Positions 5,404 through 62,217 of a DNA stretch of 62,431 bases are shown piece by piece. The notes under the pieces are model-generated. The model did no database searches. It was not told the DNA's origin and saw nothing but the letters and a program-made list of their open reading frames with translations. The stretch's first letter is position 1. Every line of letters begins with the position of its first letter. The translations under genes were made by a program, and so were the position numbers. Source of the DNA: an uncultured Candidatus Woesearchaeota archaeon (GTDB lineage Archaea > Nanobdellota > Nanobdellia > Woesearchaeales > UBA525). The DNA lies in the NCBI GenBank assembly GCA_963724455.1, contig CAVRUV010000013.1:1-62431 (forward strand). Direction: 5' to 3'.

Positions 5404-5488
5404 GCTGCCTTGGCGTAAACCAGATTGTCGAGATTTGACAGCAGTCCTCGACAATCACAAAATGACGACGTGACAGATACGCCGCAGC
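5404..5488 (+). ncRNA. Structured repeat family, copy I (divergent loop)
   Basis: Outer stem GCTGC-CTT-GGCGT / ACGCC-GCAGC; inner hairpin GATTGTCGAG...CTCGACAATC. Starts 39 nt after the FtsX stop. Confidence 0.5.
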
Positions 5489-5691
5489 AAAGTAATCAAA
5501 AAAGTAATCAATAAAAAAAAAATTAAAAATAAAAACTCCCAAGTTCAAACTTTAAGCCGGAATTCTAAACTGAACTAATTTTAAACTGAACTATAAATTC
5601 CAGTAAATCCTACTAACTGTCTGTTGGAAATAGACATACTAACTAGATATACTAACAATAAACATACTACAAACATCATTAGAACAATATA

Positions 5692-5762
5692 TGCGTCGGC
5701 TGGGAATCGAACCCAGGTCAGTAGCTTGGAAGGCTACGGTCCTACCGTTGAACGACCGACGC
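5692..5762 (-). tRNA. tRNA-Gly (anticodon UCC)
   Basis: Reverse complement GCGTCGG-TC-GTTC..GGAC-C-GTAGC-CTTCCAA-GCTAC-TGAC-CTGGG-TTCGATT-CCCAG-CCGACGC-A folds as a canonical cloverleaf; no encoded CCA. Confidence 0.9.
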
Positions 5763-5786
5763 GTCTTTACTAAGAACATTCTAGGT

Positions 5787-5795
5787 ATTTTTAAA
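5787..5795 (-). promoter_or_regulatory. TATA box (TTTAAAAAT) for tRNA-Gly
   Basis: GTTTAAAAATAC on the minus strand about 33 nt upstream of the tRNA 5' end; the same box and spacing occur at tRNA-Thr. Confidence 0.45.
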
Positions 5796-5820
5796 CATAC
5801 CGCTTGAACTAAGCAAAAAA

Positions 5821-6789
5821 CTAGCTCTTCTTTGGCCGACCACGAGAACGTTTTGGGTCAATATTCAAAGGCGCTAAATTGAGTTTTTTAAGCAATTGCT
5901 CAGTGGCTGCAGTGCCATTTCCTTGCACCAATAGCTTTCCAGTAGTATAACTGATGATAGTAATACCTGCAGCATTCTTCATGCGCACGACTTCATAGGA
6001 GTTTGTCGGTGGAACAAATGCAAACCCGTGTTCTTTTAGCACTTCAAAAGTCTTAATTTGAGCATCGTGCTTTGCAGCAGTATCTTGCTCATTTGCAAAT
6101 GAATCAAGTGATGATTGTGCGGGTTCTTTACTTGCTCTTGCAAGCCTAGCATAGCTCTCCCAACTCTTTCTGAAAAAATCGTGCCCCTCTTGCCAATGCT
6201 TATCCAAATATGATTGAGTGTAAGGATCAGCCGGGTATCCGCTACCGAGAGGGCCGTGTATTTTTACAAGCGAAGCTATTGCCCTATCTCTTGTGACTTT
6301 AGCTAAGATGGATGCTGCGCCAACAATGACATAATTATAATCTGCTTTTATCTCGCATTGCAATTTGATGTGCTTTGTTTTTCCTTGTGGGTCTAAACGC
6401 CCAAGATATGAGCGCACATCATTTTCATGCTTAGAAACAGTCTTTGTTGGCGAATCAATAATTACCTTATCCAGCTCTATTCGTTTTGATAAATTGAAAA
6501 TAAGAAGAGCAGTAGTTCTTGCTTCTAATTGATTGAGGTTGTCGCCGTGCGATTTTCCATTAACTGCAGCGTCAATTTCCTGCGGCGATAGACTGATTAT
6601 CTCATGAGATAGCTCGCTCATAACCTCGAATAGCTCATCTCGCTTTTGTGGCGTAAGAAGCTTGCTATCTTTTACCCCTACGCGTTCAAGGCGAGAGAAC
6701 TCTTCAGTCTTGCACCCCGCAATAGCCATGACCATAGGACCAATTACTGGTCCTCGGCCCGCCTCATCAATTCCTGCAACATAGCCCAT
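5821..6789 (-). CDS. rnhB: Ribonuclease HII with C-terminal RNase HIII-N-like domain and AT-hook
   Basis: GIDEAGRGPVIGPMV, DSKLL, GAASILAKVTRD and SGYPAD match type-2 RNase H (aa 1-215). Extra aa 245-305 contain 'ITIISYTTGKLLVQGNG'. The protein ends in KRSRGRPKKS. Confidence 0.9.
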   Translation of the reverse strand: MGYVAGIDEAGRGPVIGPMVMAIAGCKTEEFSRLERVGVKDSKLLTPQKRDELFEVMSELSHEIISLSPQEIDAAVNGKSHGDNLNQLEARTTALLIFNLSKRIELDKVIIDSPTKTVSKHENDVRSYLGRLDPQGKTKHIKLQCEIKADYNYVIVGAASILAKVTRDRAIASLVKIHGPLGSGYPADPYTQSYLDKHWQEGHDFFRKSWESYARLARASKEPAQSSLDSFANEQDTAAKHDAQIKTFEVLKEHGFAFVPPTNSYEVVRMKNAAGITIISYTTGKLLVQGNGTAATEQLLKKLNLAPLNIDPKRSRGRPKKS

Positions 6790-6856
6790 AGTTCATCTAC
6801 ATATTTCTTATACATGCGTTTCATTCACGTCTAGTCTGCACATTTGCATCTCTAGT

Positions 6857-7690
6857 CTAGTTTGTCTTCACAATATCAGCTATAGTGATATCAAAAACAA
6901 GGTTCTCTCCAGCTAGAGGGTGGTTGAAATCAACAGTAATTGTCCTATCGTTTTGCGAAGTGGTTCTTGCCACTCTACTACCGAAACGATAACTCTGTCC
7001 CATCTCAAAGACAGTGTTCATAATTGCGTGAGTGCTGTTAGTAGTTGAAATATATGGCCCTTCTGACAAAATATATGTCTGATTATTCTTTATATCCTGT
7101 CTAAATACCATATCATCAGCAGTCATATTCACAAAAGTACTATTCCACATAGTCTTATCGAAGACAAAAGTATTCATTAATGGCTTTAGCATGAAAAGCT
7201 CTGCTGAAGTCGAGTTGATTTTTTTGATTGAATAAATGAAATTTTTCGTTGTTATATTTTTTCCAACAGAATCATTTGTTTGCAAATTTGCAGGAATCTC
7301 TGCAATAGGAACCGATACTGTACGTTTGTACACCATTTCTATTGGGTAAACTATTATCTTTTGAACCTTAACTGCGTCATCGGGATTGTAACCGCCATAA
7401 GCATCAACTGCTTTGATAGTAACAGTCTTTAATTCGCCTTTTTTCATATCAACAAGTGCTGCATCAAATCCTGAAATAACCTGTCCTGCGCCGACTTTTA
7501 CCGGAAGAGAAGTAAAGCTCTTTTGAGGAAATTGCGCTTTGTACTGAATATCGTTAGTATCAAAGATAGTGCCGTTTGTGAACTTACCGGTGTAAGTTAT
7601 TAGCACATTGTCGCCGCGTTGTACTTTCTGGGCAGTACAGCCTGCTAGCAACACCATCAGTAGGATTCCGATAATAGCATAGGATTTCAT
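6857..7690 (-). CDS. FKBP-type peptidyl-prolyl isomerase, lipoprotein, with very long insert-in-flap
   Basis: Signal peptide plus lipobox LLAGC; FKBP N-half 'GDNVLITYTGKFTNGTIFDTN', 'GAGQVISGFDAALVDMKKGE'; C-terminal strand 'FNHPLAGENLVFDITI' as in SlyD-type FKBPs. Confidence 0.75.
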   Translation of the reverse strand: MKSYAIIGILLMVLLAGCTAQKVQRGDNVLITYTGKFTNGTIFDTNDIQYKAQFPQKSFTSLPVKVGAGQVISGFDAALVDMKKGELKTVTIKAVDAYGGYNPDDAVKVQKIIVYPIEMVYKRTVSVPIAEIPANLQTNDSVGKNITTKNFIYSIKKINSTSAELFMLKPLMNTFVFDKTMWNSTFVNMTADDMVFRQDIKNNQTYILSEGPYISTTNSTHAIMNTVFEMGQSYRFGSRVARTTSQNDRTITVDFNHPLAGENLVFDITIADIVKTN

Positions 7691-7842
7691 AATAAATGCA
7701 ACTATCCATCCTTTTTATGGTTTGTGGAGGAATGATGCAAAAAACAAGGAACCATACAAGTAAAAAGTAAAAATATGACTAGGAATAAGAAAAGAAAGAC
7801 AATCTATAGAAGATAACTAAAGAATATAAATAGAAAATACGA

Positions 7843-7938
7843 GAGTCGCCACCTTGAAGAAACCCAGAAATTGGGCCGATTCATGCAGGCCCGATTTCGT
7901 AAGTCCTGTTGGCAACAGTAAACGCTTCGTGGCGACTC
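7843..7938 (+). ncRNA. Structured repeat family, copy A
   Basis: GAGTCGCCAC-CTT-GAAG ... CTTC-GTGGCGACTC outer stem; 11-bp hairpin (one T-G wobble) capped by GATTCATGCA; third hairpin CTGTTG-GCA-ACAG. Confidence 0.6.
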
Positions 7939-7989: not shown

Positions 7990-8061
7990 GCCCCTGTGGC
8001 TCAGCGGTAGAGCGACGGTTTCGTAAACCGTAGGTCCCCGGTTCAAATCCGGGCAGGGGCT
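7990..8061 (+). tRNA. tRNA-Thr (anticodon CGU)
   Basis: GCCCCTG-TG-GCTC-AGCGGTA-GAGC-G-ACGGT-TTCGTAA-ACCGT-AGGTC-CCCGG-TTCAAAT-CCGGG-CAGGGGC-T cloverleaf. Confidence 0.9.
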
Positions 8062-10443: not shown

Positions 10444-10644
10444 TCAGTAATCTAAGAAGAACTCATCCATCTCATGTTTGGATAGTTTCTTCTTGTTTAG
10501 GATATTGACTTGTTTTTGCTTTCGTCCTGTAACAGGATCGACTGCTTTACTGTGGTGCAATCCTTTGAGGACTTGCTGGTCGTCTTCGGAGAGCGCTCCT
10601 TCGTCATCGTAGATAAATCCATCATCGTTTTTCATGATTATCAC
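10444..10644 (-). CDS. Small acidic hypothetical protein
   Basis: 66-aa ORF; start overlaps the upstream stop by 4 nt (10641-10644). Confidence 0.4.
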   Translation of the reverse strand: MIIMKNDDGFIYDDEGALSEDDQQVLKGLHHSKAVDPVTGRKQKQVNILNKKKLSKHEMDEFFLDY

Positions 10645-11048
10645 TCGTATTTTTTTGCAATCTCTTCTAACGTATTCTTGTATGAATCAGAAATGAACGG
10701 AACGCTAAAAGTCTTATTTGCGGCTGGTTGTCCGTTTCTTGTATAATTTCGTTGGTTTCGTGATTTTACCTCTTCACCAAACACTTCAAACTCTACTTCA
10801 GTATGGTATCGAGATAATTTACCATCACTCGCTTTTGATGCAAGAAATTCTAGTCCACGACCAAAGGGTAATTTGATATTATCATTAGGAGCGTTATGAA
10901 GGTACTCTACTGCAGCTGCTCTGCGTTTTTCCATATCACGCGCTTCTTGCTTATGAGTACAAGCAACATATGTACCAATTGAACCAATAACTGCCGTTGC
11001 ACCTGCATAAAGCAATAATTGTTTTGTTAGGTTTTGTGTCATAATCAT
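10641..11048 (-). CDS. N-terminally anchored hypothetical protein (first gene of the small-protein operon)
   Basis: 135-aa ORF with N-terminal TM LLLYAGATAVIGSIGTYVA. Confidence 0.45.
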   Translation of the reverse strand: MIMTQNLTKQLLLYAGATAVIGSIGTYVACTHKQEARDMEKRRAAAVEYLHNAPNDNIKLPFGRGLEFLASKASDGKLSRYHTEVEFEVFGEEVKSRNQRNYTRNGQPAANKTFSVPFISDSYKNTLEEIAKKYE

Positions 11049-11176: not shown

Positions 11177-11273
11177 ATGCCACGGAGAATTACTGCTCGA
11201 ATCCCTCGCAGGTTTTATGAAATTCCTCTTGCACCAATCAGAGGAATTTCTTGATTTTATTCCAAGGTGGCAT
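11177..11273 (-). ncRNA. Structured repeat family, copy J
   Basis: Minus-strand reading: ATGCCAC-CTT-GGAA...CTCC-GTGGCAT. Hairpin GAAATTCCTCT / AGAGGAATTTC capped by GATTGGTGCA, followed by ATAAAACCTG. Confidence 0.55.
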
Positions 11274-11358: not shown

Positions 11359-12771
11359 ATGGAAAACCCTAAGATGCATCTGTATAACACCATGACAAAG
11401 AGCAAAGTGCCTCTAGTCCCAATCGATGGCAAGACTGTTAAGATGTATACTTGCGGTCCTACCGTCTATAACTACGCTCACATCGGCAATTTAAGAACAT
11501 ACATTTTCGAAGATGTCCTAAAGCGCGCAATAGTATACAACGAATTCCCAATACTGCACGTCATGAATATCACTGACGTAGGACACCTAACTTCAGATGC
11601 AGACAGCGGCGAAGATAAAATGCTAAAAGGTGCAAAGCGCGAAGGAAAAACAGTCTGGCAAGTAGCAGAGTTCTACACCAAAGCATTTCAATCTGATATC
11701 AAAAAACTAAACATACAAGAACCAACTATTTGGTGCAAAGCAACCGATCACATACAAGAACAATTAGATATGATAAAAACTCTCGAAGAAAAAGGTTTTA
11801 CATATATTGCAGGAGGCAATGTATATTTTGATATCAGCAAATTTCCAAATTATGGAAAGCTCGCACGAATAAGCGTAGAAGATCTGCAAGCAGGAGCAAG
11901 AATCGATGTTGATGAGAATAAACGCCACCCTGCAGATTTTGCACTATGGTTTACTAAATCTAAATTCGAAGACCAAGATATGAAATGGGACAGCCCATGG
12001 GGACGAGGATATCCTGGCTGGCACATAGAATGCTCAGCAATGTCAAGAAAATATTTAGGCGACCAATTTGATATACACTGTGGCGGAATCGATCATATTG
12101 CAATACATCACACTAATGAGATTGCACAAACTGAAGCCGCAACTGGAAAAGAACCTTGGGTTCAAATATGGATGCACAGCGAATTCCTAGTCATTGACAA
12201 AGGCAAGATGGCAAAATCAGGAGAGAATTTCTTGACGCTACAAACTTTGATTGACAAAGGATACGACCCAATCATTTACCGTTACTTCTGCCTAACAGCA
12301 CACTACAAACAACAATTACAGTTTAGTTTTGAAGGACTTGATTCAGCCAAAGGAGCATATGAATCATTAAAAAATAAAATCCTGCATTTGCATGAACACA
12401 AGACTGAAGGAAAATCTATAGAAGAAAAAGAGCATAAAATAAAACAAGAATTTGTAGAAGCAATCAATGATGATCTTAACATTCCGCAAGCACTTGCAGT
12501 CATGTGGAACATGCTAAAAGATGACGAGCTTGCAAATGAGAGAAAAATTATACTTGCAGAATTATTCGATAATGTACTTGGTCTTGGAATTAAAGAAATG
12601 GGAATCAAAGACGAGATTCCTGAAGATATAAAAGTTCTTGCGCATAACAGGCATGAAGCAAAGCTTGCAAAAAACTGGGCATTATCCGACGAACTCAGAA
12701 ACAAGATAAATTCCGCAGGCTACACTATCGACGATAAAAAAGATGGAACTTATACGATTAGGAAAAGTTGA
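11359..12771 (+). CDS. cysS: Cysteinyl-tRNA synthetase
   Basis: HIGH-type 'AHIGNLRTY', KMSKS-type 'GKMAKSG', and the CysRS-specific 'GYPGWHIECS'. True start may be the second Met (MHLYNT). Confidence 0.9.
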   Translation: MENPKMHLYNTMTKSKVPLVPIDGKTVKMYTCGPTVYNYAHIGNLRTYIFEDVLKRAIVYNEFPILHVMNITDVGHLTSDADSGEDKMLKGAKREGKTVWQVAEFYTKAFQSDIKKLNIQEPTIWCKATDHIQEQLDMIKTLEEKGFTYIAGGNVYFDISKFPNYGKLARISVEDLQAGARIDVDENKRHPADFALWFTKSKFEDQDMKWDSPWGRGYPGWHIECSAMSRKYLGDQFDIHCGGIDHIAIHHTNEIAQTEAATGKEPWVQIWMHSEFLVIDKGKMAKSGENFLTLQTLIDKGYDPIIYRYFCLTAHYKQQLQFSFEGLDSAKGAYESLKNKILHLHEHKTEGKSIEEKEHKIKQEFVEAINDDLNIPQALAVMWNMLKDDELANERKIILAELFDNVLGLGIKEMGIKDEIPEDIKVLAHNRHEAKLAKNWALSDELRNKINSAGYTIDDKKDGTYTIRKS

Positions 12772-19408: not shown

Positions 19409-19532
19409 AAAAATATAAAAATCTTCTAGTCAAAAAAATAAATAGAATTAACAAAAAACATGTGATAATATTCTTTTCCACAAGACAAACTACAGACAAC
19501 CATAAATACCCCACTCTCTTCACATAAGTTAG

Positions 19533-19679
19533 AACGCGGAGCAAGTATTCTCCCATCCGGTCCGAGGATTTACGAAAAGTCGTCTGCAAACACTCAGCAA
19601 ACAATTTTTGTCTGCTGGTGCGCCAGAAGCGTTGCTTCTGAGCGAATCGACAACTTTTCTGCATTTACTCCAAGGCGTT
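19533..19679 (-). ncRNA. Structured repeat family, copy H (insertion in the loop)
   Basis: Minus-strand reading: AACGC-CTT-GGAGTAAA...CTCC-GCGTT. Hairpin GAAAAGTTGTC / GACGACTTTTC includes a T-G wobble. The loop GATTC[~55 nt]TTTGCAG is interrupted by a self-complementary insert. Confidence 0.5.
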
Positions 19680-19718
19680 TCATAAGTTAAAACGAAAAAT
19701 ACTTACGAGAAAACTACA

Positions 19719-20942
19719 ATGAAATTCACCCATACTGCTGATTGCCACATCGGAGGACACCGAGATCCTAGACTGAAAGCTCTAACAGAACAAGCATTCT
19801 TGCAATACGTTGACCAAACAATAGCAGCAAAAGTTGATTTCACAATTATTGCAGGCGACCTATTCAATACGGCAATTCCAGGAATTGACACGTTAAAGTT
19901 TACAGTAACACAACTAAACAAATTCAAGCAAAACAACATCCCAGTATATGCAATACCGGGAAGCCATGATTTTTCTCCAAGCGGAAAAACAATGCTCGAC
20001 GTACTAGAAGAAGCAGGACTTCTCATCAATGTTTGCCGAGGAACAATAACTGCTGATGGAAAACTCAAACTCGCATTTACCCAAGATAAAAAAACTGGTG
20101 TGAAACTCACAGGAGTTATAGGAAAAAAAGGCATGCTCGATCGCAACATCTACAATGAACTGGATCAAAGCATTTCTAATGAACCTGGACAAAAAATATT
20201 CTTGTTCCACACGTCCATTTCAGAACTAAAACCACAACACTTGCAAGAAATGGAAAGTTATCCAGTAAGCTTCCTTCCCAAAAACTTTGAATATTATGCG
20301 GGTGGTCACGTGCATATTGTTCAACGCTATGAACAGCAAGGCTACAAGAATGTGATCTATCCTGGACCGTTATTTCCAAATAGTTTTTCAGAACTAGAAA
20401 AATTACAACACGGCGGATATTACCTATATGAGAACAGCACCGCGACATATCAACCAATAATCCTTAAACAAGTAGTGCAACTATCAATCGATGCCGATGG
20501 GATAGATGCGCAGAATCTTAGAGTAAGACTAGAAGAAAAATCAAAAACTGCACAAGTAAAAGATGCCATCATCTTATTGCGTTTGCACGGAACGCTTTCG
20601 GCAGGAAATGTTGCTGAAGTTGCACTCGCGGAAGCGATAAGAATACTAGAAGAACGAGGAGCATTCATAGTGCTTAGAAATATCGGACAATTAAACACAA
20701 AAGAATTCCAACAGATTGCCATAGAACAGCAAGATACACCGCATGAACTAGAAGAAAAATTATTGCATGAACACACAAAAGAGCTTGCACTAAAAGGAAA
20801 AAATGGCGCGCAAAGGGACGGCGCTATGCTAGCAAAAAATCTTCTTAAAGCACTTGGACGTGAACCAATAGATGGAGAAAAGGTTACTGAACATCAAGAT
20901 CGCATGATAAAAGATGGTCTGCAAATCATTGATACACAATAA
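19719..20942 (+). CDS. mre11: Mre11-type DNA repair nuclease (calcineurin-like phosphoesterase)
   Basis: Motifs HTADCHIGG, AGDLFN, GSHD and GGHVH in the canonical Mre11/SbcD order. Confidence 0.75.
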   Translation: MKFTHTADCHIGGHRDPRLKALTEQAFLQYVDQTIAAKVDFTIIAGDLFNTAIPGIDTLKFTVTQLNKFKQNNIPVYAIPGSHDFSPSGKTMLDVLEEAGLLINVCRGTITADGKLKLAFTQDKKTGVKLTGVIGKKGMLDRNIYNELDQSISNEPGQKIFLFHTSISELKPQHLQEMESYPVSFLPKNFEYYAGGHVHIVQRYEQQGYKNVIYPGPLFPNSFSELEKLQHGGYYLYENSTATYQPIILKQVVQLSIDADGIDAQNLRVRLEEKSKTAQVKDAIILLRLHGTLSAGNVAEVALAEAIRILEERGAFIVLRNIGQLNTKEFQQIAIEQQDTPHELEEKLLHEHTKELALKGKNGAQRDGAMLAKNLLKALGREPIDGEKVTEHQDRMIKDGLQIIDTQ

Positions 20943-21839: not shown

Positions 21840-23681
21840 TTAGCGAGTACTGCGAAGTTTAATCTGCAATTCTAAAAGAGTACTAGCGCTCCAAGCTTGC
21901 GCATAACAACCGGCTGCTTCCTGTGATCTTGCACTTGAAAGCTCACTAGAGTGGCCTGCAAATCCTTGCGTAAGCAAATCATCCATGCTTGCAGCACATA
22001 TACGACTAATACATTCCTTATAGGCATCAGGATCTACTGCAAACATCGCTTGAGCAGCCATATTATTCACAAAATACCAGGAATCCCCGCGATGATATGA
22101 AGCAACATTTTCACCAGTATAAATATCATGGAAATTCGAATCATGCACGCTTATACTGGATAATCCGCCCCAAGAAAGCCAAAGCTCTGCTAGCGCGCAA
22201 TCAAATATAATCTTCCACTCCGATTGTGAGAAAAGCTTTGGCGCAACATACCACGCAATAAACATGTTTGGCCGTACAACAGTATCTAAAGATCCGTCTG
22301 CATGCAATCCATCCATAAGCATTCCGCTAACGAATAATTTTGCATGTACCGCATCAAGTACTTCTTTTGCAACACGAGATTTATTCTTATCTACGACAGT
22401 TTTGGTCATCGTGCATAAATGAACATGCGCATCAAACAATGCCAAAAATAATGCTTGAATTTCTACTCTGGCACCGGTTCTTCCATCATCGGCATAACTC
22501 GTATCCATCCAAGTAGTATTATACTCATTCCAAATGAGTCCATCACGCAATCTGCTCATGCAATTATCAATTATACGGCCGGTAGAATCCCGCCAATGAT
22601 TAAGAGCGTCTCGTGGAAGTAGATGCACTAAATTATCGTCGGAGAGCTTTATTATCAAATCTCTCGTGCGTTTTCCGAGCCATCCTGATGCATCCGCACT
22701 AGGCAATCCCTTATCAGGATAAATGGCAGGAAGAGTCCCATCCTTTCTTACAGCACTAAACCATTTATCTAAAATTGAAATTACTTCCGTATAACGTTTT
22801 GCAGCAAGTAATCCTCCGACTGAAATGAGCTCATCACGGCTCCATTCTTGAAAAAACCACGGAAGCCCCGCCATAATACCAGTTCTTGTATGTAATGACT
22901 CGAGCGCTCTCCAAGTTAAAAGTTCTCTAGGGGGTAATGTTGGCAATCCTTTTTGATAAGATGACCTATACTCGTTTACAAGAGAATCTTTTCTTGCAAA
23001 AATTTCTAATGCTGATCTTCGTGCATCTTCAGGAGATTGTGCTGTAGATATTGTCACATGACCTTTTCCGCTTAACACACCTACATCGTACACCCAAGGA
23101 ATGGTGTGTGTCCCCCTACGAACATCATAAGAATAATTAGCTTCTTTCCACAACTCCTTTTGCACAAAATCCATATCTGTTGCAATAGCAAGATATGTAC
23201 GATACTGTTGATTAGAAAGAGAAGAATCTGTATATTTAGTATACGTTACCGTGATTACACTCATTCCATTCAGATTCATTCGTTCAATAGAGTACATTCT
23301 TCCTTGATCAGATTCATCATACAATTTTTTACAATCAAGAGATACTACAAAATTTCCTTCAAGTTCAGATAATATCCCTTGCTCAAAAAGAAATAATTCT
23401 TGTTTTGCACAATCATATCTTCGCTCAACACTCGTACCATCTAATACAAGAGCATGCAATTCTGATTCAGCAGATGCTAGAGGAGCAATATCAAAAAGAA
23501 TCTTATGATAACCATCTTCTTTTTTTACAAAATATCCATTGTAATTACTTGTATTCGGAGAACCTAACGAAAAATAATCACCATGCTTATTTGTTAACAA
23601 AAATATTCCATTTGAGGCATGAGCAGGAATAGATGCATTAGCAATTTTGTGTTTAATCTCGACAGTCATGAAATGCTCCAA
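21840..23681 (-). CDS. Glycogen debranching enzyme (amylo-alpha-1,6-glucosidase, GDE_C type)
   Basis: 'GLPWFFQEWSRDELIS' and the C-terminal (alpha/alpha)6-type region 'YHRGDSWYFVNN...CYAQAWS' are typical of archaeal/bacterial GDE. Confidence 0.8.
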   Translation of the reverse strand: MEHFMTVEIKHKIANASIPAHASNGIFLLTNKHGDYFSLGSPNTSNYNGYFVKKEDGYHKILFDIAPLASAESELHALVLDGTSVERRYDCAKQELFLFEQGILSELEGNFVVSLDCKKLYDESDQGRMYSIERMNLNGMSVITVTYTKYTDSSLSNQQYRTYLAIATDMDFVQKELWKEANYSYDVRRGTHTIPWVYDVGVLSGKGHVTISTAQSPEDARRSALEIFARKDSLVNEYRSSYQKGLPTLPPRELLTWRALESLHTRTGIMAGLPWFFQEWSRDELISVGGLLAAKRYTEVISILDKWFSAVRKDGTLPAIYPDKGLPSADASGWLGKRTRDLIIKLSDDNLVHLLPRDALNHWRDSTGRIIDNCMSRLRDGLIWNEYNTTWMDTSYADDGRTGARVEIQALFLALFDAHVHLCTMTKTVVDKNKSRVAKEVLDAVHAKLFVSGMLMDGLHADGSLDTVVRPNMFIAWYVAPKLFSQSEWKIIFDCALAELWLSWGGLSSISVHDSNFHDIYTGENVASYHRGDSWYFVNNMAAQAMFAVDPDAYKECISRICAASMDDLLTQGFAGHSSELSSARSQEAAGCYAQAWSASTLLELQIKLRSTR

Positions 23682-23760
23682 TAATTAAATAATAAATTTT
23701 TTACGTTAAATTTTTCGGTTATATTTTTTAAGTTATATTTTTTAATTCGTTATTCTTAGT

Positions 23761-26330: not shown

Positions 26331-26443
26331 GTAATCCCCCCATTGCCCTTCCGGGCGCGATATGTGATATGAAAAATATAACAAAAAAATAATTCAAAAA
26401 AAATGAAGAATGATAATCTACTTCATCATTTCAAATGAAGATA

Positions 26444-26863: not shown

Positions 26864-27066
26864 AATATCTCACCCTTTTAGATATGATTTGCGCACTTCA
26901 TATTTATAAGCATTTGGGTTTTTTAGAGCAATTATCGTCGAGAAATAGGTAAATTAGTTTTCATTATAAAGTAGATACAGATTTCTGAATCAAATAATAA
27001 ACTAGCTAAAAAAAAGAACTAATAAAAAAATAATCATCTACTAAAATCAAGAATTTAATCCTAGAC

Positions 27067-27237
27067 CTAGCAGCGACTACCGCACATACCACAGCATTTT
27101 GTCATCTTCTTCTTTGAAGCAACTGCTGCCTTTTTTGCAACTACTTTCTTTACTGTTGCAGTTTTTACTGCCGCAGTCTTTATTATTACTTTCTTTGGAA
27201 CTGCTTTCTTTACGCTTGTTTTTTTCTTTGCTGCCAT
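27067..27237 (-). CDS. 56-aa Lys/Ala/Val-rich microprotein ending in a Cys cluster
   Basis: Own translation, below the track cutoff: MAAKKKTSVKKAVPKKVIIKTAAVKTATVKKVVAKKAAVASKKKMTKCCGMCGSRC*. SD AGGTGAA lies 5 nt upstream of the ATG. Confidence 0.45.
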   Translation of the reverse strand: MAAKKKTSVKKAVPKKVIIKTAAVKTATVKKVVAKKAAVASKKKMTKCCGMCGSRC

Positions 27238-31011: not shown

Positions 31012-31044
31012 AGAAAAGAGAGAAAGGAAATCATTTAGAAAAAA

Positions 31045-31181
31045 TGGCACCTTGGAGTAATTCCAGAAACTGCTCCGATTTATGCAGGAGCAGTTTCGTA
31101 AAATCCCGGACCGTTTCGGTTCGAAGAATCGAAACCGCAGGAACGTAGTGACGAGGTAGGGAGGACAGATACTCCGTGCCA
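31045..31181 (+). ncRNA. Structured repeat family, copy E (expanded third arm)
   Basis: TGGCAC-CTT-GGAGTA ... TACTCC-GTGCCA. Hairpin GAAACTGCTCC / GGAGCAGTTTC capped by GATTTATGCA. Extended arm GGTTTCG..CGAAACC. Confidence 0.6.
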
Positions 31182-34924: not shown

Positions 34925-35017
34925 GGCTACGGAGAATTGTTCTTCGTTCCTCAGAAGTTTTATGAAAAATCGTCTGCATGAATCGACGATTTTTCTAGGA
35001 TTTACTCCAAGGTAGCC
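34925..35017 (-). ncRNA. Structured repeat family, copy G
   Basis: Minus-strand reading: GGCTAC-CTT-GGAGTAAATCC...CTCC-GTAGCC. Hairpin GAAAAATCGTC / GACGATTTTTC capped by GATTCATGCA. Starts 59 nt after the ATPase stop on the same strand. Confidence 0.6.
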
Positions 35018-42286: not shown

Positions 42287-42379
42287 AACGCCACCTTGAA
42301 GCACGCCAGAAATTCGAGCGATTCATGCAGCTCGAATTTCATAAAACTTGTCGGCGACAATAAAAACTTCGTGGCGTTT
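42287..42379 (+). ncRNA. Structured repeat family, copy B
   Basis: AAACGCCAC-CTT-GAAG ... CTTC-GTGGCGTTT. Hairpin GAAATTCGAGC / GCTCGAATTTC capped by GATTCATGCA. Starts 43 nt after the ABCE1 stop and ends 13 nt before the next ATG. Confidence 0.6.
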
Positions 42380-42392: not shown

Positions 42393-43181
42393 ATGACAAA
42401 ACAAAAACATAAACTTGCGCCTGAAGGCAAAACTGATTCTTCAAAGAAATTCAAAATACCATTCATCATCTCTAGACCAAAACCAATAGTTCCAAGACGA
42501 CTTGTTGCTATCTTTACAATATTTCTTACAATCATAATTTTCTACGGCGCAATTACTGCAGTGATGCACCAACAATCACTCTACAAACACATCACTCAAC
42601 CTGCTGAGCAATTGCAGAATAAACAAATCATAGGATATCTTGACAGCCCAATCTTTTCAACAAATAACCTTGATTTCTTGACGGCAGAAGAAAAAGCACA
42701 CATGAGTGATGTAAAATCTCGTCTTGACATACTATTTATTATGTATTTAGTAAGTCTTGGGATAACAATAGGCATCATCGCAGTATTTTTTGTGCAAAAA
42801 TTATGGGCAAGATTCGATGAACTTCTTATGCGCACAATGCGCGCTGTCGGTTGGACGCTACTAGGTATCTGCTTCTTTTTTGGTGCAGCAGCACTCCTTA
42901 GCTTTACAAAACTCTGGTATTTAATCCACGGAGTACTATTCCCCTCAGGAAACTGGATGTTTGCATACAATAGCGCGTTGATTACTCTCTATCCGCAATC
43001 ATTCTTCACGCAATTTGTTGTAAGAATACTACTATTATTGTCCGCGACAGGACTAATCTTTATTCTTATTTCTTGGTTTATGATGAGAATGCGCATTGCC
43101 GACCATCAATTCTCAGAAGTGCATGAGAAGAAAATGCAACGCGCTCAAGAAGAGTTTAAAGAAAAGATAAAGAAAAAATGA
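42393..43181 (+). CDS. Integral membrane protein (possibly DUF1461/TIGR01906-like)
   Basis: 262-aa ORF with an N-terminal TM, an extracytoplasmic segment, 3-4 further TMs and a charged tail. Confidence 0.45.
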   Translation: MTKQKHKLAPEGKTDSSKKFKIPFIISRPKPIVPRRLVAIFTIFLTIIIFYGAITAVMHQQSLYKHITQPAEQLQNKQIIGYLDSPIFSTNNLDFLTAEEKAHMSDVKSRLDILFIMYLVSLGITIGIIAVFFVQKLWARFDELLMRTMRAVGWTLLGICFFFGAAALLSFTKLWYLIHGVLFPSGNWMFAYNSALITLYPQSFFTQFVVRILLLLSATGLIFILISWFMMRMRIADHQFSEVHEKKMQRAQEEFKEKIKKK

Positions 43182-43878: not shown

Positions 43879-44280
43879 ATGGGAGATTTCACACTAAAAA
43901 ACGCAGGTTCGCTCCAGAAGGGCAACTATGTTATCATCGATGACGTCGCATGCATAGTCAGCAGCGTCGATATTAGTAAGCCAGGAAAGCACGGTTCTAC
44001 AAAGGCGCGTGTTGAAGCAGCAGGCATGATTGATGGCAGAAAAAGAACATTATTAGGCCCTGCTTCAGAAAACGTCCAAGTACCAATGATTGGCAAGAAG
44101 AACGCTCAAGTCCTCAGTGTTGTAGGAACTACTGCAAACGTTATGGATATGGAAACATACGAAACATACGATTTGAAGATTCCGGCTGAACTCGATGGGC
44201 AAGTTGTTGCTGGCTGTGTTGTACTCTACTGGCAGATACTTGATGACAGAATTGTCAAGCAAGTAATGAAACAATCTTAA
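43879..44280 (+). CDS. Translation initiation factor 5A (aIF5A)
   Basis: Hypusine loop 'SKPGKHGSTKARV'. SD GGTG lies 7 nt upstream, and TTTATAAAA box at about 43838-43846. Confidence 0.9.
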   Translation: MGDFTLKNAGSLQKGNYVIIDDVACIVSSVDISKPGKHGSTKARVEAAGMIDGRKRTLLGPASENVQVPMIGKKNAQVLSVVGTTANVMDMETYETYDLKIPAELDGQVVAGCVVLYWQILDDRIVKQVMKQS

Positions 44281-44518: not shown

Positions 44519-44613
44519 GTGCTGCCTTGAAGTAAAATCAGGAGAAGGTCTGATTCATGCAAGACCTTCGACGTAAAACCTCGGACCGGAGGGAGAGAAA
44601 TTCTTCGCAGCAC
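44519..44613 (+). ncRNA. Structured repeat family, copy F
   Basis: GTGCTGC-CTT-GAAG ... CTTC-GCAGCAC. Hairpin GAAGGTCT / AGACCTTC capped by GATTCATGCA, then CGTAAAACCTCGGACCGGAGGGAG. Confidence 0.6.
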
Positions 44614-56999: not shown

Positions 57000-58259
57000 T
57001 TATTTATTTTTTACCGTCTTTGAGCCCTTACCAGTCTCGTCAGTTTTCTCGTCAGGTTTTCGAACATACAAGGACTCCTTTACAATCTCAAAACCAACAC
57101 GTAAATGATCTTCATCGACTGCTTGAGCCAGTTCTGAACGAGCAATTGCCTTTACAATACGAATAACTCCCACTACTGTACGAGGACCGACTTCCTGCAA
57201 AAACTTACGCTCGTCCACTTTTAATGCTTTGATAAATTCTACAATTTTTGCCTCATGTGTAGAATCAAACTTTACATCAATCTTATCTGCATAGGTAATG
57301 TACTGCTTGATGAAATCTATATCACCTGCGCCGAGTTTTATGCTCGCAGAACCGGTTTCAGTATGAGTCTGTACAATGTGCTTCGTTATCTGCTCAAACT
57401 CTTCGTCAGTTGCTTTTCTGACAATAAAAATTATGTGGAATCTTGATAGCAATGCATCGTCAAACGGTATTTGCTTTCTCAAACTCTCGACAGATTTTCC
57501 AATAAAGGTATCGCCTTGCGGATTTGCTGTTGCAAGAACACGCACTTTGGCAGACAGCTGCTCGTGCTTTCCACCCTTATCGTACGTAACAAATCCTTTT
57601 TCCATTGCATTATACAACGCAGCAGCATCCTTTGATTTCATCAAATTAAGTTCATCAATGCAAGCAATGCCGCCATCGGCCATCGGTAAGAGGCCTTTGA
57701 TGATAGTATCTCCTTTAGCCATAACTGATAATCCTGCACCGCTTGTTCCTGAACCAAGACCCATGCTACCAATCGGTGCAATTTTACTTGCTCCTCGCAA
57801 GATATCGGTCTTTCCCGTTCCAGGATCTCCAATAAGGAGAATATGCATTGGTTCTACTGCAAATAACTGCGCTGTTGCAGCGCGCTTTGCGCCGTCCATA
57901 CCAATAATGTTCGGTGCAATAAGAGATGATATTGAACTAAGAGCTTTTGGTGCGAATTCTAAAAACGCTTCTTCTTTTGCTTTAGAACAAATATCTTTAT
58001 TGATGCGGTCTAAGAATTTCTTAAGATCGTCGTCAGAAATATGCGTCTTGAAAAATACCCATTCCTTGTCTTCAAAAAAATCCTTTGTAGTTGCAAAACT
58101 TTGTGTTTGTGCAAAAGCTCTATCCAACTTCAGATAATACCGCAATTGCTTGATGTCTTGCTCATCCAAATATGGCGTTGCCTGTTTTATTGCTTGACGT
58201 TTTTCTCGTCCCATAGGCAAACTGAGCTTCACTAAATCCCACAATGTTTTTTTTGACAT
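57000..58259 (-). CDS. Mini-MCM: MCM-type AAA+ ATPase lacking the N-terminal OB/Zn domain
   Basis: 'IAPNIIGMDGAKRA', Walker A 'LLIGDPGTGKT', Walker B 'CIDELNLM', sensor 1 'RVLATANP', Arg finger 'LLSRFHIIF', and a C-terminal lid/wH-like region. Only about 105 aa precede the ATPase core. Confidence 0.7.
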   Translation of the reverse strand: MSKKTLWDLVKLSLPMGREKRQAIKQATPYLDEQDIKQLRYYLKLDRAFAQTQSFATTKDFFEDKEWVFFKTHISDDDLKKFLDRINKDICSKAKEEAFLEFAPKALSSISSLIAPNIIGMDGAKRAATAQLFAVEPMHILLIGDPGTGKTDILRGASKIAPIGSMGLGSGTSGAGLSVMAKGDTIIKGLLPMADGGIACIDELNLMKSKDAAALYNAMEKGFVTYDKGGKHEQLSAKVRVLATANPQGDTFIGKSVESLRKQIPFDDALLSRFHIIFIVRKATDEEFEQITKHIVQTHTETGSASIKLGAGDIDFIKQYITYADKIDVKFDSTHEAKIVEFIKALKVDERKFLQEVGPRTVVGVIRIVKAIARSELAQAVDEDHLRVGFEIVKESLYVRKPDEKTDETGKGSKTVKNK

Positions 58260-58280
58260 AATTGTACCACAAATTATTCT

Positions 58281-58333
58281 TTATTTTTATTGCATTCATC
58301 TTATTTTTTATCGTATTTATTTTTTATTGTATT
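58281..58333. repeat. Three imperfect 16-17-bp direct repeats (TTATTTTTTATYGTATT) upstream of mini-MCM
   Basis: TTATTTTTATTGCATT / TTATTTTTTATCGTATT / TTATTTTTTATTGTATT; additionally TTAATCAT occurs 3x at 58377-58414. Confidence 0.55.
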
Positions 58334-58409
58334 TGTTATTATATTTATTATCAACAATTAATTATTTATTGATACTTAATCATTATTTTTAGTTAATCAT
58401 AATACTTAA

Positions 58410-59774
58410 TCATAATTGTTGTTTTTGACTAATAAGCACGAGTATAAAATAAATCGGCATTACAATCGCTAAAAGACCTATTGCAGTTATGCCAAATAAT
58501 ACGGATAGCGGCCAGATATTTGCTATCCAGGCCATGATAGGAATCATGATGAGATAAGGAATCATAACAAAAACAGCTTGGACTTGGAAATAGTCTCTTC
58601 TTGTTTCATCATCCATAAGTTTTTTTGCAAGAAGGCCGTGCCCGAATCCGACAATGGCCGCACCTATTACATAAACGCACAAAGCTACAGTAATTGCGGG
58701 AATATTAGAGTTGAATATCAGAACTAACGGCAGTATTACCATAAGCATTGTACCAAATACCATCGTTGGCGTAAGGCCTATCGATCTATGTATCTTCTGA
58801 GTAAAAAATGGACCAATAAATGCTGCAATAATTGCAATTGCATAGATTCCAGCCAAAGTTAAGAACGGAGTTGTTGTTGTCTTTGCAACAATCTGATAGA
58901 TGGCAATGCCACTATACGCTGCAATTGCTAGCTGGAAAAGACCAGCTAAAAATGATGCAAGCAAAAGATAGCCCACGTATTTATTCTTCCACAAGCCTTT
59001 TGTCTTATAGAAGATTATACGCATATGCTCTCGTAAAAATTGTATAAATGGATAAGATTTCTGTTCGCGTTTATCTTTTGCAAAACTAGTAAGATAACCG
59101 GATATAATGAATACAAATGCAGTAATTTCAAAGATTGCAAGATAACCGTACATGTTCATACTAAATGTTTTGCCGAAAAACGAAAGCGTCCATGGTACCC
59201 CATTCATCGGCGGGAAGATGTCAAGAACAAGACCTGCAATGAGCAAAGCAAGAGCAGTTATGATAACACCCCACTGTGCAAGTGATTGGAATAACCAACC
59301 TGTTCGTTCTTTACGAACAGTATCTCGCACCAACTGATTATACAAGTCTCCATATGCTACAACTGCAAAAATTCCGACGACAAAAGATATTGCAAACAGT
59401 GTAATGCTGCGCAGCAATAAACCAAATGCCATAAACAAGAAACTAAAACCAAAAAGCACTCCTGCTGCAGCTATTGAGTTCTTGCTCACGCGATTAATTT
59501 TTGCGTACTCCTGCAGAATTTCACTCCAGATAACAGAAAATACGGTCTTTATTCCATTAAGCAAGCCAACAATGAACAAAACATAAGGGTTTGACTGGAA
59601 TGCTATCCAGAAGAGGATATTGATGAACTGCGGAGTCGCTGTACCATAACCGATACGATCGAAAAACTCCCTAAACCCGAATATGATAGTGCTACGTTTT
59701 TCTTCCGAAACCTTGCTTTTTGCATCTTGGATAGCTACATCTGCATCCTTTAACGACCTACCCTCTTCTACCAT
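58410..59774 (-). CDS. Polytopic membrane transporter-like protein (MFS-like)
   Basis: 454-aa ORF with about 12 hydrophobic segments in two halves. Confidence 0.4.
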   Translation of the reverse strand: MVEEGRSLKDADVAIQDAKSKVSEEKRSTIIFGFREFFDRIGYGTATPQFINILFWIAFQSNPYVLFIVGLLNGIKTVFSVIWSEILQEYAKINRVSKNSIAAAGVLFGFSFLFMAFGLLLRSITLFAISFVVGIFAVVAYGDLYNQLVRDTVRKERTGWLFQSLAQWGVIITALALLIAGLVLDIFPPMNGVPWTLSFFGKTFSMNMYGYLAIFEITAFVFIISGYLTSFAKDKREQKSYPFIQFLREHMRIIFYKTKGLWKNKYVGYLLLASFLAGLFQLAIAAYSGIAIYQIVAKTTTTPFLTLAGIYAIAIIAAFIGPFFTQKIHRSIGLTPTMVFGTMLMVILPLVLIFNSNIPAITVALCVYVIGAAIVGFGHGLLAKKLMDDETRRDYFQVQAVFVMIPYLIMIPIMAWIANIWPLSVLFGITAIGLLAIVMPIYFILVLISQKQQL

Positions 59775-59990
59775 ACCAAACCTCTCCCCTTGAAATTTAT
59801 AAATGTATCGTGGAGATATACAAGAGAGTTAGAAATAGAGCTAAAGAGAGAGAACTAAAAAGAAAGCTAGAAAAAAATTAGAGAGCTAGAAAGAAAGCTA
59901 GAAAAAAGTTGAAAAGAACTTTTCCGACAGAATATTTATAAACAAACTTGCTGAATAAAGAAAAAGAAGAAGATAAAGAAGAGGCGAGCA

Positions 59991-61247
59991 ATGGTCTTCG
60001 GCATAACAAAGCTTTTCAGCAAACATAATGGCAAGATTATAGAACGCTGGATATTCGATGCTCATTCTCCACTTATTTGCGGCGCAACAGTGGCGCGACT
60101 TTTCAACAATCAAGAGCACCAAGTGCTTTTTGGAACAAAAGACGGAAGAATAATTTGCGTCGATGAAACCGGTAAAGAACTATGGACCTTCATGGGTTTT
60201 GAAAAACTTGCCGGAGTAGATGCATTCTTCATCGACCAAGAGCGAGTGCATAGCGTTAATGCTCCGCCAGTTGTTGCTGATATAAACAATGATGGAAAAC
60301 AAGAGATCCTCTTCGGTAATGAACTCGGAATTCTTTATTGTCTTGATAGTAAAGGAAAACAGCTCTGGAAATTTGAGTGCAAAGGTGGCATCAAAAGCGG
60401 TTGTGTAGTTTCTGATATTAACAGTGATGGAATACCAGAAATTCTCGTCGGCAGTCTTAGCGGCAGTCTTTACGTCCTCAATTCGCAGGGTAAAAAAATA
60501 TTCGAATACGACACTAATGCTCCAATCGAGAGCATACCTGCCGTTCTAAAAAGCGACAAGACCATGATCATTTTCGGGAATAACAATGGAACATTGTTCT
60601 GCATAAATCCTGCTCAAGAGCTTTTATGGAGAGTTGAACTCGGCCACAAAATAACTGCTGCTCCAGTATTTTTCAAGGACCCAGAAGAGCACCGCCTTAT
60701 CGTAGGAAATATGGATGGTGATATTTTCTGCGTATCTGAACATGGAGAAATTGTCTGGAAGTACAAAACAAAGGGCAGCATCTATTCAAGTGCAGCAATT
60801 GCAGATTTAAATAATGACAAACAACCTGCAATTGTAGTTGGCAGCTGCGATAATAATGTTTATGCATTAACTGCTGCGGGCAAGAAAATATGGAGCTTTG
60901 AAACAGATTTCTGGATTACAGCATCTCCAATAATTGCAGATATTGATGGTGATGGAAAACTTGAAGTAATCGTCGGCAGCTTTGATCATAATGTCTACGT
61001 GCTTGATGCACAAGGATCATATATCCTGGATTACATGCCGGGCATTTCAGATATTATCAATCAATCTGGACACTATACAAACATCATGACATCGGATCCT
61101 GGCGAACAGATGGGAAAGAAATTATACCAATACACGACTTCAGGCATTATTGTTGGTTGCAGTCTGCTTGAGCGCGAAAACCAAAAACCAACACTCATCA
61201 TTAATGTCAATAGCGGCAAAGTCGGTGATTTCGAACATCAAGATTAG
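59991..61247 (+). CDS. FG-GAP/PQQ-like beta-propeller repeat protein
   Basis: Repeated 'D(I/L)N(N/S)DG..E(I/V)(L/V)(F/V)G' with 'G.(L/V)Y.(L/V)(D/N)..G' blades, at least 6 times. Confidence 0.65.
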   Translation: MVFGITKLFSKHNGKIIERWIFDAHSPLICGATVARLFNNQEHQVLFGTKDGRIICVDETGKELWTFMGFEKLAGVDAFFIDQERVHSVNAPPVVADINNDGKQEILFGNELGILYCLDSKGKQLWKFECKGGIKSGCVVSDINSDGIPEILVGSLSGSLYVLNSQGKKIFEYDTNAPIESIPAVLKSDKTMIIFGNNNGTLFCINPAQELLWRVELGHKITAAPVFFKDPEEHRLIVGNMDGDIFCVSEHGEIVWKYKTKGSIYSSAAIADLNNDKQPAIVVGSCDNNVYALTAAGKKIWSFETDFWITASPIIADIDGDGKLEVIVGSFDHNVYVLDAQGSYILDYMPGISDIINQSGHYTNIMTSDPGEQMGKKLYQYTTSGIIVGCSLLERENQKPTLIINVNSGKVGDFEHQD

Positions 61248-61305
61248 AATTCTAAAAGAATAATAAAATTAGAATGAAGAATAACATCTGTAGTAGTAAT
61301 AATAC

Positions 61306-61395
61306 GTGTTGCCTTGGAGTAAATTCTATTTTCGTCCGATTTATGCAGGACGAAAATAGTAAATCCTGACGGTGTCAGTAGAAACTCCGCAACAC
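61306..61395 (+). ncRNA. Structured repeat family, copy C
   Basis: GTGTTGC-CTT-GGAG ... CTCC-GCAACAC. Hairpin CTATTTTCGTCC / GGACGAAAATAG capped by GATTTATGCA. Third hairpin CTGAC-GGT-GTCAG. Confidence 0.6.
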
Positions 61396-61480
61396 CAGTG
61401 GGGAGGAGTAGAGGGGGATGGTGGGAGGGAAATTAATTAAAAAAATTATTTAAAAATTAAAATTAAAAAAAATATAAAAA

Positions 61481-62092
61481 TTACAAATCAACGCCGTGTT
61501 TGTGGTACTTCTGCACTTGCTCCCAATTGATCATGTGGAAGAATGCATCAGTAAAATCTGCGCGCTTGTTTTGATACTTCAAATAATACGCGTGCTCCCA
61601 GACATCGATGACTAATAATGGAATGAGTCCATCACTGAGCGGGCAATCTTGGTTCGCAGTCGATATGATTGAAAGCTTACCATGCTTATCCTTAACAAGC
61701 CATGCCCATCCTGAACCAAATCTTGCAAGTGCAGCTTTCTTGAACTGCTCTTTGAAGCCATCAATACTACCGAATGTATGGTTCATCTCTTCTAAAAATT
61801 TTCCTTGAGGCCCGTGTGAATTAAGTTTGAGTATCGACCAGAAGAACGTGTGGTTCCATACGCCGCCACCATGATTTCTGACGGCAGTTCTAATATCTTC
61901 AGGAACTTTTGATACATCAGATAACAACTGATTAAGTGGTTGGTTAAATAGTGCCGGATGCGCTTCAAGCGCTTTGTTCAGATTATCAACATACGCTTGA
62001 TGATGCTTGTCATGATGTATGTGCATTGTCTGCTCGTCCATATATGGCTCAAGCGCTTTGTAATCGTACGGTAATGGAGGTAATTGATGCAT
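61481..62092 (-). CDS. sod: Fe/Mn superoxide dismutase
   Basis: 'LPPLPYDYKALEPYMDEQTMHIHHDKHHQAYV' and 'DVWEHAYYL' carry the metal-ligand motifs. Confidence 0.9.
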   Translation of the reverse strand: MHQLPPLPYDYKALEPYMDEQTMHIHHDKHHQAYVDNLNKALEAHPALFNQPLNQLLSDVSKVPEDIRTAVRNHGGGVWNHTFFWSILKLNSHGPQGKFLEEMNHTFGSIDGFKEQFKKAALARFGSGWAWLVKDKHGKLSIISTANQDCPLSDGLIPLLVIDVWEHAYYLKYQNKRADFTDAFFHMINWEQVQKYHKHGVDL

Positions 62093-62129
62093 AAGTATTC
62101 ACCTTGATATATTCAATAATTATTAGTAA

Positions 62130-62217
62130 TGTCGCCTTGGAGCAAATTCCATTTTTGACCGATTCATGCAGGTCAAAAATGGTAAAACCTCACGGTGTGA
62201 GTGAAAGCTCCGCGACA
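62130..62217 (+). ncRNA. Structured repeat family, copy D
   Basis: TGTCGC-CTT-GGAGC ... GCTCC-GCGACA. Hairpin CCATTTTTGACC / GGTCAAAAATGG capped by GATTCATGCA. Third hairpin CTCAC-GGT-GTGAG. Confidence 0.6.

Follow-up and report, generated by a model that had tools for sequence, protein, structure and literature searches.

Ten dispersed three-way-junction elements in a Candidatus Woesearchaeota genome and the structured, MITE-like repeat family to which they belong

What kind of element keeps its unpaired loops and junctions nearly constant, lets its stems change freely and lies scattered in ten copies over a single stretch of an archaeal genome? The question is raised by contig CAVRUV010000013.1 of an uncultured Candidatus Woesearchaeota archaeon (assembly GCA_963724455.1), of which we analyzed a stretch of 62,431 nt, called here the window. 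An earlier note, made from the sequence alone, had described ten small elements with a common three-way-junction fold, could assign them to no known RNA class and held that they did not look like miniature inverted-repeat transposable elements, or MITEs. Our analysis indicates that the feature is real and statistically solid, and that the family is undescribed as far as searches of the literature and of Rfam reach. The reading that we prefer, with a probability of about 0.5, is that of a non-autonomous MITE-like family, confined to Woesearchaeota-type DPANN archaea, of which the ten elements are copies; a conserved core of ~90 nt forms the three-way junction. Members of the family are scattered over many genomes, the fold belongs to one particular strand, and there are target-site duplications (TSDs) of 7-10 bp, recent near-identical copies and filled and empty sites. 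The family shows neither a fixed relation to the direction of the neighbouring genes nor a promoter of its own.

Fold, strand and conservation

A covariance model built on four window copies matched, with filters off, nine of the ten. Model R2, built on 89 family members and searched against the window in the same way, found all ten at 43.8-84.6 bits (E <= 2e-9) and none besides, the next match in the window having 12 bits (E ~1); the copies recovered are exactly those that had been reported, strands included (Table 1). The string CCTTGRAG occurs nine times in the window against 2.3 expected, and eight of these occurrences are inside copies. The elements measure 85-147 nt there, lack an internal open reading frame (ORF) and occur at a density of about one copy per 6 kb. 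Seven lie on the plus and three on the minus strand; the GC skew of the window is monotonic and hence uninformative on a replication-strand bias. The description of the elements as GC-rich holds within the window, where the cores have 40-52% GC against 37% for the whole, but not in related high-GC genomes, when they are compared with their background.

Other members of the family were gathered by scanning genomes and metagenomes for a pattern and then searching with a model, which gave 89 matches, 80 of them distinct; the loci fetched in this way from other genomes and metagenomes are designated by L-numbers. The pattern used for fishing required the loop, CCUUGRAG and RUAA, and the conservation of these parts in the fetched loci is partly forced, while the window copies are free of this bias. 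The 80 distinct copies come from three Woesearchaeota metagenome-assembled genomes (MAGs) and many metagenome contigs. When one genome per species was scanned with the pattern, the matches were almost only in three MAGs labelled Candidatus Woesearchaeota and two contigs labelled Methanosarcinales. Scattered pattern matches in other taxa did not fit the covariance model, and a scan of viral contigs gave one chance match without model support. The two Methanosarcinales-labelled copies are good model matches (L023:1427-1516, 69 bits, and L027:7287-7378, 43 bits) on contigs of 44 and 151 kb; they reflect either mis-binning or a spread of the element beyond Woesearchaeota, and the Pfam assignments of the neighbouring ORFs did not settle the taxonomy. 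The genomes that carry the element span 32-68% GC, and the stems of the core follow the GC of the host (39-70%) with constant loops.

All window copies share one architecture. An outer helix, P1a, is followed by a CUU bulge and by a second helix, P1b, of exactly 4 bp (GRAG/CUYC, or GGCG/CGCC in copy A), which opens into a three-way junction with the 11-bp hairpin P2, capped by the loop GAUUCAUGCA (three copies are exceptions), and the variable hairpin P3. The 3' arm of P2 has 11 nt in the eight copies with a plain loop. P1a, the bulge, P1b and P2 are as first described, copy A apart, and the P2 stem pairs listed at that time are all correct; the exact decaloop GAUUYAUGCA, then credited to eight of the ten copies, is present in seven. 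Folded as single sequences, nine of the ten copies give this three-way junction, and the minimum-free-energy fold of copy E is an alternative without it. The z-scores of the window copies against shuffles were between -3.3 and -5.7.

The alignment of the 80 distinct copies bears out the covarying stems and the conserved loops and junctions. In it 96.6% of the stem cells are paired, compared with 68.7% after shuffling and 34-51% when the partners are slid by 1-3 columns. Double-sided changes are found in 22 of the 25 pairs, and the covariation score is 0.64 against 0.17. All four Watson-Crick pair types appear at similar frequency in the middle of P2, and there is hardly any change in the pairs that close the loop, bulge and junction. 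A mutual-information scan returned helices only, with no tertiary or pseudoknot pairs and no covariation of the loop, for which the earlier note had thought a kissing dimerisation conceivable. Conservation is far higher in the unpaired loops and junctions than in the stems, and even inside one genome the terminal helix differs in sequence. Junction lengths are constant (J1/2 of 7-8 nt, J2/3 of 7 nt, J3/1 of 5-6 nt), and the most conserved junction sequence is the GUAAA of J2/3.

The mismatches allow the strand to be told. There are 27 G-U pairs (1.5% of 1840 cells) against 7 A-C, mostly as independent events, and ~22 tandem G.A/A.G motifs (23 G.A and 21 A.G cells) against 4 C.T; in one subfamily such a tandem replaces two A-U pairs at the base of P2. 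The excess of G-U over A-C indicates that the strand under selection is the one that the earlier note had assigned to the RNA.

Two optional expansions recur in unrelated genomes, each with compensated stems of its own. The P2 loop holds a similar insert, aligned at the same position, in window copy I and in L061:3527-3665 from another metagenome, and P3 is expanded, again with compensated stems in the alignment, in window copy C, L060:2014-2148 and L108:5243-5376.

Copy D and the non-orthologous L093:94-179 have one and the same complete P2 hairpin, AGAAAUUCGAGC-GAUUCAUGCA-GCUCGAAUUUC, and differ in P1a and P3. Since these two copies are at different loci, their identity suggests that parts of copies may be exchanged as modules.

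Signs of mobility

In MAG RIFCSPHIGHO2_02_FULL_36_9 and related metagenome contigs the core lies within a unit of ~150 nt, bounded by perfect 12-bp inverted repeats, GGTAAAGTCAAC, and by direct repeats of 7-9 bp that differ from locus to locus. Three of these units (L109, L105 and L083) are near-identical, with different TSDs of 7-8 bp and unrelated flanks, and three more (L038, L021 and L027) have a terminal inverted repeat (TIR) with a TSD of 8-9 bp as well. The perfect 12-bp TIR is present in L038, L083, L105 and L109; that of L027 differs (GxGTGTGTCC) and goes with a 9-bp duplication. Direct repeats of 7-9 bp that abut the TIRs amount to six clear cases. Over the family, 14 of 76 copies stand between direct repeats of at least 8 nt, where mismatched flanks would lead one to expect ~5, and in the window copy I has a perfect 9-bp repeat at 1 nt from P1a. 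An autonomous element with GGTAAAGTCAAC ends was sought in the fetched loci, where this TIR was found only as pairs around cores, as in MITEs. Just outside the right end of four of the five young copies (L109, L083, L038 and L021), 10-15 nt beyond the right TSD, there is a TTTATAAA/TTTATATA box.

A second recent expansion is found in the Woesearchaeota MAG UBA10207, which has at least five near-identical copies of a composite of ~180 nt, in which the outer helix is longer and a further, compensated hairpin follows on the 3' side. The composites are located at L016:1530-1725, L036:5655-5875 and 7532-7752, L008:6649-6869 and L019:2783-3003. Their outer helix is GCUCGAG/CUCGAGC, the second 3' hairpin has the compensated stems CCGCGGCC/GGCCGCGG and CCCCGCCC/GGGCGGGG, the ends are TGAATACC ... 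GGTGATTCA, and a TATA-like TTATCATAT stands at the left edge.

Empty sites were found for two copies. Copy F is absent from the orthologous intergenic region of L093, and L060, which is syntenic with L036, lacks the L036:7592 unit. Just upstream of the latter site there is a long inverted repeat rich in AT, CTTACATAATAAG ... CTTATTATGTAAG, conserved in both the filled and the empty locus (L036:7400-7445 and L060:3550-3600). Directly 3' of copy F, at 61396-61435 of the window, a G-run tract GGGGAGGAGTAGAGGGGGATGGTGGGAGGG could form a G-quadruplex, and a G/T-rich stretch of ~110 nt likewise precedes the L036:7592 unit. The orthologue of copy G, in turn, is L093:94-179, also upstream of the superoxide dismutase (SOD) gene; the flanks are 68% identical and P1a is the same (GUCGC), with P2 and P3 stems that are fully different. 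Copy I has the same position as the L016 copy relative to the gene of an Mre11-like protein, which is 61% identical to that of UBA10207, and the L016 copy belongs to the recent burst.

The family combines most of the features by which MITEs are recognized: short, non-coding, dispersed copies, TIRs (in the window P1 forms the termini), TSDs, presence/absence polymorphism and recent near-identical copies. The sequence of the TIR is not conserved across the family. Near-identical copies elsewhere with TIRs and TSDs were also what the earlier note itself had named as the mark of a plain MITE, and related genomes show them, with TIRs of 12 bp, TSDs of 7-9 bp and filled and empty sites. Its inference that the elements are not mobile repeats is not supported, while its fold and its polarity stand and no Rfam family matches.

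For the 48 copies with two clear neighbours, 18 intergenic regions are convergent, 10 divergent and 20 co-directional, the last with 12 copies in sense and 8 in antisense (p = 0.5); convergent regions are over-represented and the orientation is independent of the neighbouring genes. A promoter position weight matrix trained on the promoters of the window scored no better than random upstream of the elements in either orientation (1.5 against 1.3), compared with 8.6-9.4 for the tRNA promoters. There is no T-run downstream of the elements, where the flank is A-rich, and no conserved motif in the 5' flank. No recurrent protein family was found beside the copies in 70 loci, and no transposase, reverse transcriptase or HUH protein was found there or among the window ORFs.

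Readings of the element

If the family is a non-autonomous mobile element, as we prefer to read it, the invariant unpaired parts would be a cis-acting recognition surface for a putative trans-encoded protein that copies, moves or processes it. This surface would consist of the CUU bulge beside the 4-bp GRAG/CUYC helix, the GUAAA of J2/3 and the GAUUCAUGCA loop, together with their closing base pairs. The structure would be read in single-stranded form, either as an RNA transcript or as the sense strand of single-stranded DNA (ssDNA), the latter being kept possible by the rarity of G-U and by the stability of tandem G.A in DNA. Only the copy lineages that keep junction, bulge and loops would multiply further, and such a selective multiplication would produce compensatory stems with constant loops and intact structures anywhere and in any orientation. 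What delimits the element would be the foot of its outermost helix rather than any constant end sequence, since direct repeats adjoin this point and the terminal helix itself differs from lineage to lineage and within the window. The variants of this helix are the bare P1a in the window, the GGTAAAGTCAAC shell, the GxGTGTGTCC shell and the composite of UBA10207.

Several points weigh against this reading. Its autonomous partner was not found among the window ORFs or beside the copies in the 70 loci, and clear TSDs are found in a minority of copies only, being not seen for most of the older ones. Classical DDE transposases act on double-stranded DNA, in which they recognise conserved end sequences, and for this P2, P3 and the loops are not needed, and HUH/ssDNA transposons make no TSDs, though HUH would explain the hairpins. 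To our knowledge, there is no RNA-mediated MITE in prokaryotes. No known transposition chemistry fits every feature: DDE would explain the duplications and not the need for an internal fold, and RNA-mediated insertion would explain both, without precedent or an enzyme here. Besides, the retention of copy G and the position shared by copy I and the L016 copy could equally mean that the host selects individual insertions. A bolder idea, which we regard as rather improbable, is that RNA or ssDNA structure, and not terminal sequence, marks where this mobile element ends, or else that a new class of protein-binding or catalytic RNA has spread through DPANN on several transposon shells. In the first version a copying or integrating enzyme would hold the element by its three-way junction; an RNA intermediate, for instance, might be cut back to the foot of the outer helix and then be copied and inserted at a staggered break. 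If true, either version would be new among the elements described from archaea.

The main rival of the mobile-element reading is a core that is useful to the host. It would be a domesticated or host-beneficial structured RNA carried on a MITE, acting as a protein-binding module in read-through transcripts (stabiliser of the 3' untranslated region, processing or insulating signal, or sponge for an RNA-binding protein), and selection by the host would keep the insertions. We consider this tentative and on balance unlikely. Near-invariant loops and junctions with free stems are as in protein-binding RNAs, the sense strand is the one selected, and when the upstream gene is co-oriented most copies lie 35-60 nt past its stop. 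Copy G has been kept at its orthologous position in L093 across a deep divergence with the fold intact, and the core persists over the whole GC range of the hosts. The same relative position of copy I and the L016 copy points in this direction too, but the latter is a recent insertion from a burst, so the pair may be independent and the apparent orthology a re-insertion. The nearly equal numbers of sense and antisense copies in co-directional regions, which weaken the case for a cis-acting 3'-untranslated-region element, argue against this reading, as do the position of copy B between two promoters, outside any known transcript, and the lack of an own promoter.

A plain MITE acting at the DNA level would have its inverted repeats kept by templated repair of quasi-palindromes or by co-evolution of TIR and transposase, and the folded strand would have no function. 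TIRs, TSDs, bursts and empty sites are all consistent with it, and the low frequency of G-U is more like that of DNA inverted repeats than of typical RNA stems. Still, decay or templated repair would not hold the decaloop, the CUU bulge and J2/3 nearly invariant beside stems that use all four pair types. The ten window copies, free of the pattern that required the loop, already point to loops being more conserved than stems. A ratio of G-U to A-C of ~4:1, the tandem G.A that isosterically replaces two A-U pairs and the structured, compensated expansions also speak for a selected fold, and a terminal helix that varies within one genome is unlike a sequence-specific TIR. The element is not a plain MITE, as its unpaired parts outconserve its stems and its terminal helix varies in this way; that its fold is nevertheless without function seems to us quite improbable.

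Independent multi-copy genes for small RNAs, either trans-acting or a new class of self-cleaving ribozymes, are very unlikely, and we have rejected them. In their size, their covarying stems and a three-way junction with conserved nucleotides the elements recall small ribozymes or riboswitch aptamers, and the UBA10207 unit holds its TATA-like TTATCATAT ~45 nt upstream and a 3' hairpin. However, the elements have neither a promoter signal, by the window-trained matrix in either orientation, nor a downstream T-run as terminator, and there is no Rfam match to a ribozyme or small RNA, for copies F and G even at E <= 10. C/D box RNAs (C box RUGAUGA with D box CUGA) were represented by none of 83 copies and the hammerhead core motif by only one of them. 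The variable parts are all base-paired to each other and hence are not guides.

The archaeal splicing endonuclease EndA recognises shape and not sequence, which would leave the invariant C-CUU-GGAG unexplained. Its substrate in archaeal tRNA and rRNA processing is the bulge-helix-bulge, and the idea that the element is half of such a motif (or a bulge-helix-loop), with the core excised and circularised, is the most doubtful of all: the bulge is always of 3 nt, P1b always of 4 bp and followed by unpaired nucleotides on both strands, as in the first half of the motif, and broad-specificity endonucleases are known from DPANN (PMC5829648), but the second 3-nt bulge and its flanking helix are absent (past a 3-nt bulge on the 3' strand, as little as 2 bp would be possible in only 9 of 79 copies), J1/2 and J3/1 do not covary, the sequence is invariant where the motif needs shape only, and all copies are intergenic, so that splicing is not needed.

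Known relatives, neighbouring genes and significance

Rfam 15 searched over the whole window at gathering score gave two tRNAs only, and at E <= 10 nothing overlapped copies F and G, in agreement with the first assessment of the elements as unassigned. BLAST of one copy against phages and plasmids gave no match. In the literature, searches for structured RNA of Woesearchaeota or DPANN, for bulge-helix-bulge motifs, for MITEs with compensatory changes and for the literal motifs found no description of the element. A K-turn or L7Ae site, in which tandem sheared G.A pairs come after a 3-nt bulge, was also rejected; the helix after CUU is Watson-Crick (G-C, R-Y, A-U, G-C) and the tandem G.A of P2 has no adjacent bulge.

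Among the closest parallels are bacterial repeats. Structured MITE-like repeats of bacteria include Correia/NEMIS of Neisseria, BOX and RUP of Streptococcus pneumoniae, ERIC and bcr1 of Bacillus cereus; they have inverted-repeat ends, TSDs, a stable fold when transcribed and a copy number that varies greatly between related genomes. Like them, the elements described here are small and non-coding, occur scattered between genes in both orientations and have inverted-repeat ends, TSDs, a fold and a variable copy number. Unlike them, they are archaeal (DPANN), have an internal three-way junction with near-invariant loops and hypervariable compensated stems, and have terminal repeats that differ between lineages and within a genome; they have no sequence similarity to those repeats. 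The family belongs to a known kind, the structured MITE-like intergenic repeat, and is unusual in its pattern of conservation and in its host.

Archaeal MITEs are exemplified by SM1-4 of Sulfolobus and by the haloarchaeal PATEs derived from IS200/IS605. They are defined by the ends of known insertion sequences and are alike in sequence within a family, and the IS200/IS605 derivatives make no TSD. Our elements are likewise non-autonomous, archaeal and of similar size, but they have TSDs of 7-10 bp, no parent insertion sequence was found in the window and the 70 loci, and structure is conserved above sequence. An origin as PATE or REP-RAYT, which have hairpin ends and a fixed tetra- or pentanucleotide target, is not supported, given the TSDs, the lack of a conserved 5' flank motif and the absence of a Y1 or TnpB gene nearby in the same loci.

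Integron attC sites are imperfect palindromes of 57-141 nt, conserved in structure, with extrahelical bases and one functional strand, and often stand just after a gene; archaeal integrons have been reported in DPANN. The elements share with them the priority of structure over sequence, the extrahelical bases, the single functional strand and the frequent location just past a gene. They differ in having no R box (RYYYAAC / GTTRRRY), termini of the form GYYRC ... GYRRC without AAC/GTT, no cassette arrays or integrase nearby, a spacing of ~6 kb among housekeeping genes, both orientations and TSDs, and attC was rejected as well.

Table 1. Copies of the element in the window, with candidate flanking duplications and genomic context. 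Scores are those of model R2.
Feature	Position	Strand	Structure and score	Context
Copy A	5404..5488	+	divergent copy; P1b GGCG/CGCC; P2 loop not the decaloop; 43.8 bits, E 2e-9	39 nt past the stop of a MacB/FtsX-type permease gene (4120-5364; Pfam); convergent intergenic region with tRNA-Gly
Copy B	7843..7938	+	P1a of 10 bp; 84 bits; fold z -5.5	divergent intergenic region, FKBP gene (6857-7690, -) / tRNA-Thr (7990-8061, +); TATA-like box of the tRNA between element and tRNA
Copy	11177..11273	-	loop variant GAUUGGUGCA; 73.1 bits	divergent intergenic region, ORF 10641-11048 (-) / CysRS (11359-12771, +)
Copy I	19533..19679	-	P2 loop split (GAUUC / UGCA) by a structured insert of ~54 nt; 51.9 bits	39 nt upstream of and divergent to an Mre11-like phosphoesterase gene (19719-20942)
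9-bp direct repeat of copy I	19523..19531 and 19681..19689		TAACTTATG on the strand of the element	candidate TSD, 1 nt from the base of P1a
Copy C	31045..31181	+	expanded P3: extra hairpin with loop UUCGAAGAA and segment GNAACGUAGYGAC; 72.5 bits over 31046-31180	between two + genes, ArsR-type (30343-31011) and ORF 31226-31495
8-bp direct repeat of copy C	31029..31036 and 31193-31200		AATCATTT	candidate, less certain than that of copy I; 8 and 11 nt from P1a
Copy	34925..35017	-	84.6 bits	60 nt past the stop of a P-type ATPase gene (35077-37830, -); convergent intergenic region
Copy D	42287..42379	+	83.2 bits	between ABCE1/RLI (40492-42243, +) and a Lit-like gene (42393-43181, +) (Pfam)
Copy	44519..44613	+	tandem G.A variant at the base of P2 (GGAG / CGAC for GAAA / UUUC); 77.7 bits	240 nt past aIF5A (43879-44280)
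Copy F	61306..61395	+	82.7 bits	convergent intergenic region, beta-propeller gene (59991-61247) / SOD (61481-62092, -)
Copy G	62130..62217	+	83 bits	38 nt upstream of and divergent to SOD

The window is a piece of chromosome, and its genes include ABCE1/RLI, aIF5A, a family-B DNA polymerase, cysteinyl-tRNA synthetase (CysRS), a class I aminoacyl-tRNA synthetase, an MCM-like ATPase, RNase HII, SOD and a glycogen gene cluster, the remaining ORFs being housekeeping or without assignment. Copies G and I abut the promoters of the SOD and Mre11-like genes (38-39 nt from the ATG), which may reflect an insertion preference next to promoters or merely the small size of the intergenic regions. At 57000-59774 (-) a 454-aa ORF without Pfam match adjoins a short MCM-like ATPase of 419 aa that has just the P-loop and lid domains; the pair may be the remnant of an integrated element. 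The glycogen/alpha-glucan cluster (21840-30005, -), in a DPANN-type genome, encodes a debranching-enzyme C domain, a glycogen synthase, GH57 and GT4.

DPANN archaea are uncultivated, their genomes are reduced, and their non-coding repertoire and mobile elements are almost uncharted. A covariance model of the family could let annotators mask or label the elements in Woesearchaeota MAGs, and the elements could serve as markers in population and binning studies. Invariant loops and junctions, free stems and modular expansions are the mark of a molecule that is read by its shape, yet the behaviour of the family is that of a transposon. If the fold is needed for mobility, this would be an unrecognised mechanism of transposition; if it serves the host, it would be an abundant new archaeal RNA motif.

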